Source: a phage. Taken from it: 64,000 nt of DNA. Each line of letters begins with the position of its first letter. Position 1 is the first letter of the stretch. Shown in pieces: positions 8,776 to 46,646 of the stretch. The notes beneath the pieces are model-generated. The model worked only from the letters and a program-made list of their open reading frames with translations. It was not told the origin of the DNA and searched no databases. Made by a program: the position numbers and the translations under genes. The DNA is taken from NCBI GenBank assembly GCA_014816185.1, contig GCA_014816185.1_4095.1. The stretch is one strand, 5' to 3'.

Positions 8776-9885
8776 TTATTTCGGCATTGTAATTGCAGAC
8801 CATGAGTTCGTGGTAATAGGACCTGGTACATACAAAAAAGAACCACAAGCATAAATTTGATTATTACCATCAAATACTATACTAAAATGTGCACATGTGT
8901 ATAATGATGATTTTTCTGGGTTGTAATTATCTAAAGTTAGTGTATTGGTGAATCTACTCAAACCACCTCCCGAACCATTTCTACCAAATTCACCAGTACT
9001 GTATATCTTTCCTTCGGTTGTTGCGTACATATTAACATATGAAGTCGCACTTGATTTTGATATTTTATGTATCTTACTATCAATAGTAGTGGAGTTAAAT
9101 GCAAATGGATATACTTGTGTGTTCGTTGTAATACCGTTACCAAGTTGACCAATATACTGCCAACCTGCGTTGTATATATTGCTGGCTGAATAAGCAAGAG
9201 TACCAGTACTGTTACCACCAAATAGTTTAACACTTGTTAACCTGCTTACTAGTGTAGTATACTGTCCTGGACTTACGCCAAGTGAACCATACCCACTGCT
9301 CCCGCAACCGAGAAGTTCATTATTTGATGTTAATATTAATGTGTTATTCTGTGTACCCAATATATCAAGAACTGTATTAGCTCCGGTATTAATAACTGAA
9401 ACAAAAGTACTCTGAGCCGTGGAATACCCACCACCGAGTGAATAGTTACCATTCATGCCTCTACCATAAACAATCGAACCACTAGCATCAACGTAGTGCA
9501 TTGTATCTGCACCAATTGATATCATTTTAATATTAGATATATGTGGAAATGAAGAAGTAACATTCAAACCACCCAACGGAATCATAGTATTTCCTGTGCC
9601 TAATTGTGTGGTAACTCCATGCATTATGAATTCTTCACCCTTGAGATAAAGAATATTGTACGCCCCAGCCCATGCATCAGTAACACCTTCTGAAATTAAT
9701 ATCCAAGTATTTCTTGTTGCTGTATTTTCAACGTTTAACTGAAAATACGTATTAACCCCACAACCATAAAGTGAGCCATCACCATAGAGGACGTACAAAT
9801 TATCAAGACCGCACAGTACTTTCTTTATCTTTGGAGCTTCAGGTGCAATATTTCCGTACTTAATCATTCTAACAAAAGGTAACAT
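8776..9885 (-). CDS. MLPF-propeller family protein 2
   Basis: starts MLPFVRMIKYGNIAP at 9885; G-x-N-x-x-G-Q-L-G-like blades. Confidence 0.65.
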   Translation of the reverse strand: MLPFVRMIKYGNIAPEAPKIKKVLCGLDNLYVLYGDGSLYGCGVNTYFQLNVENTATRNTWILISEGVTDAWAGAYNILYLKGEEFIMHGVTTQLGTGNTMIPLGGLNVTSSFPHISNIKMISIGADTMHYVDASGSIVYGRGMNGNYSLGGGYSTAQSTFVSVINTGANTVLDILGTQNNTLILTSNNELLGCGSSGYGSLGVSPGQYTTLVSRLTSVKLFGGNSTGTLAYSASNIYNAGWQYIGQLGNGITTNTQVYPFAFNSTTIDSKIHKISKSSATSYVNMYATTEGKIYSTGEFGRNGSGGGLSRFTNTLTLDNYNPEKSSLYTCAHFSIVFDGNNQIYACGSFLYVPGPITTNSWSAITMPK

Positions 9886-25382: not shown

Positions 25383-26049
25383 TTCAACATATAGACAGGG
25401 GAAGCTCCGCAGGGAAAGCATTGGACAGGCTTTAACATATGTTATATATGTTAAAATTCAGCCTGGACAAATGCGATCACTAGGATTCTCCCCAGGCTAA
25501 ACCCCGTAATCATATGTAGTCATAAGTAATCATATATAAACATTTAAGTAATCATTTATAATCACAGTAGTGATCAGTATTGAGTACTAGAGTGTAATAG
25601 AGTACAGGAATGTGCACGTTTAATCAAGAACGTAGCAGTACTGCCCCAAAAGTATTCAGTACTGAAGGTGGCGATATCCCACTAAGTAGGCAGAGGAAGT
25701 CTGCCGTACTTTGTAGTTTCCAAGCTCCTTTTCCATTTTGCAAATTACATCAAATGTAATCAAAAGTAATCACGCAATGATTAGTACTGAATTATTACTT
25801 TCACCTTAATTTCAATTACCCTTTTACCCTTCGGGGTAAAATTCAATTACCCCTTGAGGCTCCAGCAAAAAGTTGGTTAGTACTCCATCCTAAATCTCGA
25901 TCCTAAAAATTTTGGAGTACCTATGAAATAAAAGTTGGATCTTCGAAAGTTGAAATTTACGTTGGGACGTTTATGATTTGTGGGATATAATGATGTTTGT
26001 AGTCGGGTAGTTCTCAAGAATATCAGTACTGAAAGATGAAAGAAAGTTA

Positions 26050-26077
26050 TTGACTTTATGATTCAGTACTGTATAAT
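26050..26077 (+). promoter_or_regulatory. orphan sigma70-like promoter TTGACT-16-TATAAT (no ORF downstream)
   Basis: TTGACT 26050-26055, TATAAT 26072-26077; no ORF of 60 aa or more on plus strand until 27368. Confidence 0.4.
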
Positions 26078-26439
26078 GTTCTACATAGCTTCAAGGGGTG
26101 ATGAGTTGCTGCGAACAATTCATTTACTCTACCTCCTGTCGTGAGACAGTACAGAAAAGATAGTTCCTCCTGTGGTGGTACATCTTTTTGAACCTCATAT
26201 GAAAATCGTAATAACAGTACTGATATTAACAGAATGGTATCAGTACTGATTTTAATCTAAAGCATTATGCCACCAGCTTGTGCTGGTGGATTCCCTCTAA
26301 CAGTATTCAGTACTACATGATAGTCTTCATCCTCCTAGGGTAACATAGTGAGGGCTATGATGGCAGTACTGAATACTCCCTTTCAAAAGATAGATCTATG
26401 GTATAGTACTGACGGATTTTGGGTGTAGTTACCCTGGAT

Positions 26440-26600
26440 GGATTTTGGACGTAGATATGTCTAGCCCTCCAGAAGTCTGGAAGTAAAGATGGCTATCCAT
26501 CTAGACGGCTAAACGGCTAGATTTCTGGATGGCTGGATGGCTAGACGTTTGGACGGCTAAACGTCTAGATGGTTACACGTCTGGAAGTATAGACGGCTAA
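26440..26600. repeat. cluster of short direct repeats (iteron-like)
   Basis: repeated words CTAGACGG, GACGGCTAAAC, TCTGGAAGTA(A/T)AGA(T/C)GGCTA (two copies ~104 bp apart), tandem CTGGATGG. Confidence 0.5.
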
Positions 26601-27113
26601 ATCAAAATTTTATTTTGTTTTTTCCAATAGTTCCCCTACCGCGTGGGGATAGTTTCCCCGCAGTATCTGGAGTTAGATTTTTCTGAATCTGGAATCATTA
26701 TCTTATAAACTGGGGGCAATGTCAACGGCCTGGACGGATATTTTTAAAAATTTTTTCAGTACTGAATTTTGGGCGTAACTATGCACCCGGTGGGCTTGAG
26801 TCTTTCTCGACTTGATGGAACTATTATACAGTACTGGAAAAATAAAGCAATACCCTGGATGAAAAAAGTTTTAATTAATTTGCTTGCTATCCTGGGCCGG
26901 ACTATGGTACTATATTTCAGTACTGAGAAAGTGCGTTAACCTGCTAGGGTGCGGGAGTGTATCCTTTTTAAATTTTATGAATTTTGGACGGATCTTCCCA
27001 CCCCCTGGGGTATCCGCTTTCTCGCGTCTATGTAGTAATTATACGCTTTTTTAGTACTGAGTCAATAGCTAAAAACAAAATAATTGAAAATAATTTAACG
27101 CGTTTAAACGGCC

Positions 27114-27198
27114 TGTAACGCCCTGGATTGTTGGGAGTGGTGCAAATGTATAGCTTAGGTGTATTAATGCGTTAGAATGCGATTGAGGCCGTTTTACG
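27114..27198. repeat. inverted-repeat-bracketed segment containing CGTTAGAATGCGATTGAG motif
   Basis: AAACGGCC ... GGCCGTTT flank; motif recurs at ~33266 and ~37812. Confidence 0.35.
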
Positions 27199-27341
27199 GG
27201 GTGTAGTAGTGATTTGGTTGATTCAGTACTGAATAATAGTACTCCTATATAGAAAGATAGTTCCCCTGGATGGTTGCAGTACTGAATAATAGTACTCCTA
27301 TATAGAAAGAAAACTATTTTAAAAGTATTTGTAGAAAGTAC

Positions 27342-28789: not shown

Positions 28790-29065
28790 GCAGTTTACAA
28801 ATCTTTACAATTGCCGGTATTGACTTATTTTGTCAGTACTGGCATAATGTATTCATTGGCAGATAAGCCGTAGCCCATAGGGTGCGGGAGTGTATCTATA
28901 GAAAAAGTAGTTTATTACAGTTACAATTGTGCACCCGGTGGGTTAGCTGTTGTCATGGGGTATATTATGCCAGTACTGGATAGTGCTGTCAATACCTTTT
29001 TACTATTCAGTACTGAAAACTATTTGATAAAAAGTACTTGCAAACTATGTTTAAAGGCGTATAAT

Positions 29066-33136: not shown

Positions 33137-33165
33137 AGCCCACTGTATAAGTGGGCTTTTTTGTG
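33137..33165 (+). terminator. intrinsic terminator
   Basis: AGCCCAC-tgtataa-GTGGGCT followed by TTTTTTGTG. Confidence 0.6.
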
Positions 33166-33389
33166 TTTATCGTTTACCAGGCCACCAGCACCGCCTAGAA
33201 TCGATTCTAACGCATTAAACTGATTATCTGATGCATTGCCCTAGCTGGTGGCGTTAAGGTCGTTAGAATGCGATTGAGAGCGTTTAAAGTATTTTGCAAA
33301 AAGTAATAAAAAGTACTTGCACGATTAAGAGATTAGCGTATAATTAATTACATCAAGGCGAGACACCTTAACTAACTGAGGATATAAAG

Positions 33390-33542
33390 ATGAATACTTA
33401 TGAACTGGATTGTTTTACTTTACAAGTAATGTCAGTATGCAGTAAGAAAGATTGGTCATCAAAGGAATTTAAAGCAGTTATCGCGTGTGCAAAACACGGC
33501 AAGACTATCAATGAAACGGCATCAATCATTGATAAACTTTAA
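33390..33542 (+). CDS. small protein (50 aa)
   Basis: MNTYELDCF..; below track threshold; preceded by promoter-like TTGCAC..TATAAT. Confidence 0.35.
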   Translation: MNTYELDCFTLQVMSVCSKKDWSSKEFKAVIACAKHGKTINETASIIDKL

Positions 33543-35178: not shown

Positions 35179-35451
35179 ATGAACGTTAATCAAGTACTGA
35201 ATGAGATCGAAAGCATCATTAAACCGATGAAGCGTACTGATGCTATGTTAACACCGGAAGAATGCCGCCTTTATGAGCGTTACAGCGTCGAACAAGTCCA
35301 GGCAATGGCTATGGCTACCCCAGCCGTTAAACCGCCTGAGAATGCGTTACAGGACGTTACAGGGGATTATATCATCAATCCAGTACTAGGGAAGATGGCG
35401 GCAATCACCGAAGATCAACAAGACTACTTAAGCCAGTACTTAAAAGGTTAA
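35179..35451 (+). CDS. hypothetical protein
   Basis: 90-aa ORF. Confidence 0.45.
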   Translation: MNVNQVLNEIESIIKPMKRTDAMLTPEECRLYERYSVEQVQAMAMATPAVKPPENALQDVTGDYIINPVLGKMAAITEDQQDYLSQYLKG

Positions 35452-36351: not shown

Positions 36352-36445
36352 GTGGTTGACTCCGGTCAGCCATTTTGCTATTATATATTCATTGAGAGAT
36401 AGCTCACTAGCCCACAGGGTGCAGGAGTGTATCTATTGTATAATG
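36352..36445 (+). promoter_or_regulatory. composite element: UUCG-type hairpin/promoter + conserved CCCACAGGGTGCA segment
   Basis: related copies at 40379, 43645, 46399. Confidence 0.5.
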
Positions 36446-37733: not shown

Positions 37734-37832
37734 GATTATAGCCCACTGGTTAACGCTGGTGGGCTTTAATTCATTACCCTATACAATGCCAGTACTAAAC
37801 CGTTTATCTCGTTAGAATGCGTTACAGGACGT

Positions 37833-38036
37833 TTGACAATGATTAGCATGAAATCAGTACAAAAACAAATAGAAACATTATCAAAAATTAAACGTAAACA
37901 GTACTCGTTAGAATATACAATCAATGGTAACTATCATCTAATGAAAGAGAATAATTTCATTGTCATTGATGAATCATTGCAAGTTATTAGTATAGTACTG
38001 AAAGCATTAATCAATGACAGAAAAAAATTAAAATAA
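37833..38036 (+). CDS. hypothetical protein
   Basis: 67-aa ORF. Confidence 0.4.
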   Translation: MTMISMKSVQKQIETLSKIKRKQYSLEYTINGNYHLMKENNFIVIDESLQVISIVLKALINDRKKLK

Positions 38037-38365
38037 TCTATTGACAATATCCTCCAGTACTGGCATAATACTTACATCAAGACGAGAACGTCACTAACCC
38101 ATAGGGTGCACAAATGTAACTATATAATATCGATCAATAAATGATCAAAAAAGTACTGGATTAATTTAGCATAAGGCGTATAATTCTGATCAATTCTTGA
38201 TCAAAGGCAATATACGCAGTTGAATTTATATAGACAGTACAAAGGCGTTACTATCCGTGGTAATGCTGATGGATATGTAGTATCATATGGTTTGAATAAG
38301 ATAAACACTAGTAGTATTATTGTAGCATTACAGTACTATAGTATTTTTATAATGAGGTTAAAATA

Positions 38366-40378: not shown

Positions 40379-40465
40379 GGGATTGACTCCGGTCAGTCCC
40401 TTTGCTATTATATACGCATAGAAACAAATCAGCCCACAGGGTGCATAAATGTATCTATTATATGC
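40379..40465 (+). promoter_or_regulatory. composite element: UUCG hairpin / TTGACT-17-TATTAT promoter + conserved segment
   Basis: GGGATTGAC-TCCG-GTCAGTCCC; TTGACT 40383-40388, TATTAT 40406-40411. Confidence 0.5.
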
Positions 40466-43644: not shown

Positions 43645-43735
43645 GGGATTGATTTCGGTCAGTCCCTTTGCTATTATATATTCATTGAGAGATAGCTCAC
43701 TGACCCACAGGGTGCATAAATGTATCTATTATATA
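43645..43735 (+). promoter_or_regulatory. composite element: UUCG hairpin/promoter + conserved segment
   Basis: GGGATTGAT-TTCG-GTCAGTCCC; downstream ATTCATTGAGAGATAGCTCACTGACCCACAGGGTGCA. Confidence 0.5.
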
Positions 43736-43852
43736 AGTATTCAGTACTGAAAACTATTTTTAAAAAGTACTTGCATTGTACTTAGAATCAAGTATAATGT
43801 TTTATATCGAGAGGGGGGGGAACGGTTCTCCCTGGCAATAAGGAATAAAATC

Positions 43853-46398: not shown

Positions 46399-46480
46399 GG
46401 GATTGACTCCGGTCAGTCCCTTTGCTATTATATACGCATAGACAAAAACTAGCCCACAGGGTGCATAAGTGTATCCAAAA
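46399..46480 (+). promoter_or_regulatory. composite element: UUCG hairpin/promoter + conserved segment
   Basis: GGGATTGAC-TCCG-GTCAGTCCC; CCCACAGGGTGCATAAGTGTATC downstream. Confidence 0.5.
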
Positions 46481-46646
46481 TATATAGTTAATAACGGTGA
46501 GTAACTATCTGCTGGTGGATGTACTGCCAGTACTCAAGGGAACTAAAACTATTAATAAAAAGTATTGACAAAGTATATCAGTACTGCAATAATGTATCTC
46601 GTAGGGCGGCAATGGTGCGACGGTCCACAAAGTTAGGAGATTCAAA

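Follow-up and report, generated by a model that had tools for sequence, protein, structure and literature searches.

What is the short motif that recurs in the 64,000-nucleotide stretch of phage DNA analyzed here (the window; GenBank assembly GCA_014816185.1, contig GCA_014816185.1_4095.1), and does it act as RNA or as DNA? The first-pass annotation had described it as lying downstream of a terminator, inside segments bracketed by inverted repeats, and had proposed that it was either a structured RNA or a recognition site. A 3-kb query around the locus matched 42 phage records at 90-98% identity, most of them from Escherichia jumbo phages (121Q, PBECO4, fEgEco12 and vB_Ec-M-J) classified as Asteriusvirus, and by these matches we assign the window to an Asteriusvirus, a 121Q/PBECO4-like jumbo coliphage. 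The record of vB_Ec-M-J marks the DNA that matches the window as a direct terminal repeat of 21.5 kb, with position 1 of that genome at window position 25685 and the end of the repeat, by alignment, at about 47900. Based on that alignment the locus sits in the ~21-kb terminal repeat. Repeats of ~21 kb were confirmed for fEgEco12 by PhageTerm and restriction mapping (PMC13070987). The terminal repeat carries the early genes, which are dense, small plus-strand ORFs, each with a repeated cassette of a sigma-70 promoter and a 5'-UTR hairpin upstream, and at its left end (25685-27340) ~1.7 kb is untranslated before the first early gene. Searches found no tRNA or tmRNA. The complete 352-kb genome used for comparison was that of a relative, ECO103 4-12-1, which was assembled for this analysis.

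The recurrence of the motif proved to be exact and far from random. The 18-mer CGTTAGAATGCGATTGAG was identified on the plus strand at 27170-27187 and 33261-33278 without mismatch and at 37810-37827 with three mismatches, in agreement with the second exact copy (~27172-27190) and the partial copy (~37812) that had been reported. These three copies compare with 0.01 expected, and none of 100 shuffled sequences reached three or more. With a position weight matrix (PWM), trained on motif instances that we had chosen ourselves, four copies were found in the window (A at 27170, B2 at 33261, C at 37810 and D at 35335; scores of 27 to 45 bits), whereas no match of 14 bits or more was found in five shuffles of the window (top score 13.3). 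In the ECO103 genome the 12-mer core occurs exactly three times, all on one strand and at sites orthologous to those in the window, and the count thus lies far above what base composition predicts, in the window and genome-wide. The motif is ~30 bp long (up to 40 bp) and consists of three or four CG-led units phased at 10 bp, or one helical turn, with the consensus CGTTAGAATG CGATTGAGAG CGTTTTAG (the third unit can also be written CGTTTWA). In B2 the extra phased unit GCGTTAAGGT precedes the 30-nt motif, giving the full array GCGTTAAGGT CGTTAGAATG CGATTGAGAG CGTTTAAAGT, and in C the corresponding upstream unit is CCGTTTATCT, giving CCGTTTATCT CGTTAGAATG CGTTACAGGA CGTTTGACAA. Coordinates of these and the other features are collected in the table.

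Table. Motif copies, brackets and neighboring features in the window (positions are those of the whole 64,000-nt stretch)
Feature	Position	Strand	Remarks
Intrinsic terminator of upstream 165-aa gene	33137..33157	+	also annotated as a terminator in phage G17
Left bracket, opposite-orientation Chi	33182..33189	-	CCACCAGC on + strand; not genus-conserved
Copy B1	33191..33220	+	degenerate, partly palindromic CCGCCTAGAATCGATTCTAACGCATTAAAC, core TAGAATCGATTCTA; read from sequence
Right bracket, Chi GCTGGTGG	33244..33251	+	9 nt 5' of B2; genus-invariant
Copy B2	33251..33290	+	30-nt motif proper 33261-33290, CGTTAGAATG CGATTGAGAG CGTTTAAAGT; exact 18-mer; PWM 45 bits
Sigma-70 early promoter	33317..33344	+	TTGCAC, 16-nt spacer, TATAAT; repeated AAAGTACTTGCA cassette type
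Inverted repeat around copy A	27106..27194	.	AAACGGCC 27106-27113, GGCCGTTT 27187-27194; right arm overlaps motif unit 3
Copy A	27170..27199	+	CGTTAGAATG CGATTGAGGC CGTTTTACGG; exact 18-mer; PWM 44.9 bits
Copy D	35335..35364	+	diverged; inside 90-aa ORF 35179-35451; PWM 27.2 bits
Copy C	37810..37839	+	CGTTAGAATG CGTTACAGGA CGTTTGACAA; PWM 36.7 bits
Chi, plus strand	26282, 33244, 37755, 39216, 40464, 42810, 44710, 46287, 46511	+	exact GCTGGTGG
Chi, opposite orientation	26270, 33182	-	exact match
TAGCCCAYAGGGTGCRNRAGTGTATCTAT family	26938-26973, 28871-28906, 36408-36443, 38095-38130, 40430-40465, 43701-43736, 46450-46485		seven copies of ~36 nt

All of the window copies lie within the terminal repeat, in settings that differ from one another. 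Copy A is far from promoters, in the 1.7-kb untranslated leader and ~1.5 kb inside the left boundary of the repeat, and is kept in vB_Ec-M-J, ECO103 and 121Q. Copy B2 occupies about -90 to -61 relative to the start of the next early promoter, while copy C begins 47 nt 3' of a terminator hairpin that contains a Chi site and extends as far as 37839, where a 65-aa gene has its start codon. Copy D is located inside an ORF, where it encodes ..PENALQDVTG.. and aligns with copy C over ~46 nt; no counterpart of it was found in the motif scan of ECO103, and D may have arrived recently, by recombination or capture. The terminator that had been noted upstream of the locus was confirmed as an intrinsic one. 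The ~60-nt bracketed segment, which was said to contain both the motif and its complement, does contain the complement match ATTCTAACGCATT (33204-33216), whereas the full motif at 33261 lies downstream, outside the bracket. That match belongs to the degenerate copy B1, which is close to a variant found in a T5-like phage, CGCCTAGAGTCGATTCTAGGACGTTCTAGG, is partly deleted in G17, and has as its equivalent in EJP2 a palindrome that is a terminator stem.

The brackets themselves have a different identity. The 9-mers GCCACCAGC (33181-33189) and GCTGGTGGC (33244-33252) contain, by exact sequence match, the E. coli Chi site GCTGGTGG. The left arm is mutated in 121Q, G17, slurp01 and UB and is absent in EJP2, with no compensating change in the right arm. 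At copy A the reported brackets AAACGGCC and GGCCGTTT are present, and phage 121Q alters the right arm only, so that pairing is lost. Since arms are mutated or missing without compensation among the nine genomes aligned, and in 121Q at copy A, the inverted-repeat brackets are not conserved helices. Conversely, the right-hand Chi together with B2 is nearly invariant across the nine aligned Asteriusvirus genomes, including the divergent EJP2, whereas their flanks diverge or, as in EJP2, are replaced. We conclude that the motif is a genuine, conserved, non-coding DNA element of ~30 bp.

Nine plus-strand Chi sites occur in the window, every one within the terminal repeat, whereas chance predicts ~0.2 per 64 kb, and the relative ECO103 has the same nine co-oriented sites. 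In this orientation Chi would halt RecBCD entering from the right genome end. Such an arrangement would suit RecA-mediated circularization via the terminal repeats. Two Chi sites also stand back to back in a hairpin, CCACCAGC-ttgt-GCTGGTGG, at 26270-26289.

The untranslated left repeat end (25685-27340), in addition to this Chi hairpin and copy A, holds direct repeats (for example, cagtactgaataatagtactcctatatagaaag twice, ~27221-27309) and, at 26447-26598, 19 in-frame tandem octamers (AGACGGCT, AAACGTCT, GGATGGCT and others), a layout similar to that of the untranslated repeat regions in the T5 terminal repeat. Each octamer shares 4-7 of its 8 positions with the MetJ met-box consensus AGACGTCT, and 14 consecutive units agree at five or more positions, compared with a maximum of three in shuffled sequences; the array could be a MetJ-binding array or an array of sites for a phage protein. 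Two other repeat families were observed. The hexamer AGTACT and CAGTACTG are two to three times more common in the terminal repeat (~25685-47900) than in its flanks, and both belong to ~20 early-promoter cassettes composed of AAAGTACTTGCA, a 16-17-nt spacer, TATAAT and a 5'-UTR hairpin (GGGGAGAA..TTCTCCCC), with alternative genes joined directly after the -10, which resembles the PeSL-type shuffling of T4-type phages. The seven members of the TAGCCCAYAGGGTGCRNRAGTGTATCTAT family are scattered through the repeat, and the one at 26946 is terminator-like.

With respect to the choice between RNA and DNA, the proposal of a structured RNA was not supported. The predicted fold of 33165-33300 was no more stable than shuffled sequences on either strand (z = -0.8 and -1.1), and a search of the window with Rfam produced nothing at gathering thresholds and only terminator-like noise in a permissive scan. 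The orientation of the motif relative to genes also varies: it follows the direction of the genes in Asteriusvirus and T5, opposes it in T1-like phages and in two prophage groups, and is located between convergent genes in another group. In view of the absence of a fold signal and of an Rfam match and of the variable orientation, we favor a double-stranded DNA site over RNA. We also considered that the motif might be a coding remnant, as one phage group has the 18-mer inside an opposite-strand ORF (translated ..LNRILT.., which by eye only resembles a helix-turn-helix regulator), and rejected this as coincidence, given that the frame has stops in T5 and in prophage group L023.

The second proposal, that of a recognition site, gained support from the occurrence of this non-random, genus-conserved and non-coding motif in unrelated enterobacterial phages, prophages and plasmids. 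An exact-pattern scan of the IMG/VR viral contig collection returned 88 loci, whereas a comparable 16-mer used for calibration returned 13, of which ~8 were obvious random GC-rich matches. Among the groups represented were ~25 T5-like contigs, including T5 itself, T1-like phages, prophage-like contigs and contigs of 97-220 kb; exact-pattern searches of this kind bias the core towards apparent invariance. When the 41-nt B2 array was used in BLAST, 457 phage records were matched, almost all at unannotated intergenic positions, and these included T5-like and T1-like phages, ~145-kb phages and Erwinia jumbo phages. The same array matched 521 of 5426 complete E. coli genomes (~10%), with 36 of the places lying on plasmids, so that the motif is accessory rather than core E. 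coli DNA. A scan of one genome per species found only three small plasmid-like contigs, with ColE2-type mrs sites, and a few coding coincidences. The similarity between groups can be close: the copies in viral contig L220 and in pSCU-106-7, a plasmid, are identical at all but 2 of 30 positions, and some T5-like phages have a second, inverted copy that aligns with B2 and C over four units (~40 nt). As judged from these sequences, the motif is shared by Asteriusvirus, T5-like and T1-like phages, prophages and small colicin plasmids. No description of it was found in the searchable literature, including by a sequence-string search.

The occurrence in phage T5 is particularly informative as to setting. 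The T5 version, CGTTAGAATGCGATCTAGGACGTTTTAGGC (39 bits), is at ~9271-9300 of AY587007, in the untranslated injection-stop-signal region (iss, Repeat Region 3) of the left terminal repeat, 57 nt 3' of the palC terminator and 42 nt 5' of palD. As in the window, the same motif is thus found in untranslated DNA of a long direct repeat that has the first-expressed genes, just 3' of a terminator. The palD sequence TACTGTATAAATATACAGTA (1842-1861 of locus L099, ~9318-9337 of AY587007 by offset) is, by sequence, a perfect LexA box, and it lies between the motif and DnaA boxes, with no downstream gene. A LexA-box scan aimed at T5-like loci retrieved mostly unrelated temperate phages, together with four divergent T5-like motif variants, and in divergent T5-like phages a recognizable variant occupies the same place. 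In an unrelated 59-kb viral contig the motif is 12 nt from a LexA-like box. Davison's comparative analysis describes T5 Repeat Region 3 as highly conserved, and no mention of the motif was found in the section consulted; it is likewise absent from the annotated repeat features of AY587007. The two systems are not identical in layout: T5 has one copy per repeat followed by the LexA box and paired DnaA boxes, whereas the window has three or four dispersed copies, no LexA box (CTGT-N8-ACAG) anywhere, and its nearest DnaA-box match at 33486 on the minus strand. Two-step DNA transfer is a feature of T5 and, for Asteriusvirus, a conjecture.

In ColE2-type plasmids the motif is found in a second well-studied context. 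The plasmid version GCGTCAGAAAGCGATTGAGAGCGTTTTAGAG directly abuts a cer-like XerC/XerD core, GGTACGTACAA-CAGGAG-TTATGGTAAAT, and the core pattern GGTGCGTACAA-N6-8-TTATGGTAAAT adjoins the motif in pL4, pSCU-106-7 and the three small contigs. An ARG-box-like TGCATAGTTATGCA is present ~100 nt upstream, followed by a shortened, inverted copy of the motif ~45 nt upstream of the motif itself. A PWM built from phage sequences only gave 35.5 bits for pL4 and 40.8 bits for pSCU-106-7, compared with a maximum of 17.2 bits in 200 random 750-nt sequences, while ColE1 cer shares only the last ~16 nt of the motif, TGAACGCGTTTTAGCG. According to published work on cer, 98 bp separate the Arg box from the XerC site, the region bound by PepA is poorly defined, the A/T tracts are phased, and the site contains the Pcer promoter (PMC2409434, PMC2831885, PMC5935869); the geometry of the ColE2-type plasmids (motif, Xer core and ARG-like box) agrees with that layout. 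The plasmid copies occupy the XerC-proximal accessory arm, which is where cer-type sites place accessory proteins and Pcer (PMC2409434, PMC2831885). In contrast to the plasmid sites, with their XerC/XerD core and ARG box, the phage copies have neither: a search out to 250 nt from each window copy found no Xer core, the window has no credible full core, and there is no ARG box (with up to three mismatches) upstream of the window copies, the sole match being ~100 nt downstream of copy C. Since this phage is lytic and its genome linear, the motif does not serve it in plasmid dimer resolution.

Which protein might bind the motif was approached by comparing the neighboring genes and the sites of known regulators. 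The ORFs of the window's terminal repeat and those near the motif in other phages had no blastp match at E < 1e-3, a result that speaks against a common, phage-encoded binder; the genes flanking the motif are all of unknown function. The motif-bearing plasmids encode only Rep, Mob and colicin functions, and it is unlikely that a trans-acting factor is encoded by the motif-bearing elements themselves. Because no phage protein co-occurs with the motif and the plasmids contribute only these functions, a putative trans-acting factor would have to be host-encoded. Several host proteins were tried and rejected. DeoR operators were verified in the K-12 deo region (TGTTAGAATTCTAACA, a 16-bp palindrome, and TGTTAGAATACTAACA, 599 bp apart), and unit 1 of the motif, CGTTAGAAT, agrees with the half-operator TGTTAGAAT at 8 of 9 positions, with the other half, ATTCTAACG, carried by B1. 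However, the two halves are ~56 bp apart in the window, the rest of the motif is unrelated, no 16-bp palindrome occurs in the window, and no site within four mismatches overlaps the motif. The control regions of carAB P1 and pepA, examined for PepA, scored at best -3.1 and -4.4 bits with the PWM, no better than random sequence, and ArgR and XerCD were rejected at the window copies for want of an ARG box and an Xer core. Compared by eye with what we take to be the consensuses of FIS, IHF, CRP/CRP-S, ArcA, OmpR/RstA, MetJ, H-NS nucleation sites, the marbox and boxA, the motif offered half-site or partial matches at best, which we treat as leads.

Taken together, we tentatively favor, at somewhat less than even probability, the reading that the motif is a cis-acting, double-stranded DNA recognition module for a host protein. 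That a protein binds the motif, and that it is of host origin, we infer from the considerations above. The helically phased CG-led units would form the docking site of a DNA-binding protein of the Enterobacterales host, either sequence-specific or architectural, around which a nucleoprotein complex would assemble on the DNA of the terminal repeat. Such a role would be analogous to the one suggested where the motif occurs in the injection-stop region of T5 and the XerC-proximal arm of ColE2-type sites. The three or four co-oriented copies occupy the intervals between an intrinsic terminator (or Chi) and the next early transcription unit. Candidate roles include a transcriptional insulator or roadblock, protection or synapsis of the DNA ends or recombination of the repeat in cooperation with Chi, and a T5-like control of DNA entry. 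The reading of a host-protein site draws support from the fact that elsewhere the motif sits in protein-binding regulatory DNA (the T5 iss and the ColE2-type mrs). Against the host-docking reading, no candidate protein tested fits and the contexts of the copies in the window are heterogeneous.

Some of the sharing across phages could have arisen through the lateral spread of an intergenic cassette that itself has no function. Taken further, this becomes the best of the alternatives, which we regard as unlikely: that Chi, the motif and the early promoter form a hitch-hiking cassette or recombination junction, an intergenic glue for RecBCD/Chi-stimulated gene shuffling, whose spread to other phages and plasmids would be horizontal transfer and not independent function. 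In EJP2 the homology to other Asteriusviruses begins at Chi plus the motif, with the alignment stopping at query position 258, and, further downstream, two alternative genes follow directly on the promoter -10. Furthermore, Chi adjoins B2, is close to C and, in 121Q, is near copy A, and the region has dozens of repeated promoter/5'-UTR cassettes. The promoter-early stem-loop (PeSL) cassettes of T4-type phages, which consist of a promoter and a stem-loop, are lineage-specific and have been proposed to shuffle early genes. The motif resembles them in being a short conserved intergenic module between small early genes at mosaic junctions, but it is neither a promoter plus stem-loop nor lineage-specific, being common to phage families and plasmids. 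Moreover, a near-identity of ~30 bp among T5-like phages, T1-like phages and plasmid mrs sites, which have no other detectable sequence or protein in common, is hard to account for without selection, the substitutions in slurp01 and in the plasmid copies fall at the same tolerated positions, and 30 bp is short for RecA-mediated exchange.

A narrower form of the host-protein reading, which we consider doubtful, is that the motif is the site of a single host architectural protein with which enterobacterial mobile elements build higher-order complexes, for example, the long-sought sequence determinant of PepA-type wrapping at cer-like sites, and that T5 and the jumbo phages share a control, dependent on that host factor, over the DNA that enters first. 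There exists no usable PepA consensus (PMC2409434). If this form were true, T5-like staged entry or end-protection would be implied for Asteriusvirus.

Of a similarly low probability is a promoter or small-RNA element, in which TAGAAT would serve as a -10 or TTGAGA as a -35 for a short transcript like Rcd, the transcript made from Pcer inside cer-type sites. Precedents can be found outside the window. In the ColE2-type plasmids 17 nt separate the TTGAGA of the motif from the TACAAC that follows in the XerC arm, and in deoP2, TGTTAGAAT carries the hexamer TAGAAT, which we take to be its -10, ~60 nt upstream of deoC. In ColE1, TGAACG is 15 nt upstream of TACAAT, which is the reported 15-bp spacer of Pcer (PMC5935869). 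The window copies do not conform to this pattern, as no copy has both hexamers at 16-18 nt and no -35 is found upstream of TAGAAT. In the sigma-70 promoter test, A and B2 had no partner hexamer 16-18 nt from either TAGAAT or TTGAGA, with B2 offering GCAAAA, CAAAAA and AAAAAG at the expected -10 place, and at C the one candidate was TAGCAT, 15 nt away and accompanied by a poor -35. There was also no terminator or fold signal for a small-RNA product.

Still less probable, and in our judgment very unlikely, is a structured RNA or long-range hairpin in which GATTCTAACG base-pairs with CGTTAGAATC/G over a distance of 45-60 nt, either within a transcript or within single-stranded DNA. Its best evidence is that several groups (the window, prophage group L023, contig L047, the ~97-kb contig L042, EJP2 and the plasmids) have a partial copy in inverted orientation 45-60 nt upstream, and that in the plasmids both arms have CTGAC/GTCAG in place of CTAAC/GTTAG. 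Beyond the fold energies and the empty Rfam search described above, however, G17 carries a deletion of the partner, copies A and C and the T1-like phages lack it, in EJP2 and L042 it is merely an ordinary intrinsic terminator stem, and matched changes in the arms are equally expected from two protein sites. The least credible alternative, a tyrosine-recombinase or known-repressor site, be it a cryptic Xer or integron attC-like site (GTTRRRY-like CGTTAGA) or a DeoR operator, has in its favor the XerC/XerD core that abuts the motif in ColE2-type plasmids and the 8/9 DeoR half-operator, and against it the lack at the window copies of an Xer core within 250 nt, of an ARG box and of a full DeoR palindrome (one half-site only), along with an L'/L'' pairing that is not evident in the sequence.

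If, as we favor, a host protein does bind the motif, this would explain a conserved and so far unexplained part of the T5 injection-stop region, would define the poorly characterized XerC-proximal accessory arm of ColE2-type resolution sites, and would tie both of these systems to the terminal repeats of jumbo coliphages, giving a first sequence-level handle on them. The cluster of nine Chi sites and the met-box-like array suggest that the terminal DNA of these phages is loaded with sites for host factors, which would bear on how the linear phage DNA survives RecBCD and becomes circularized.
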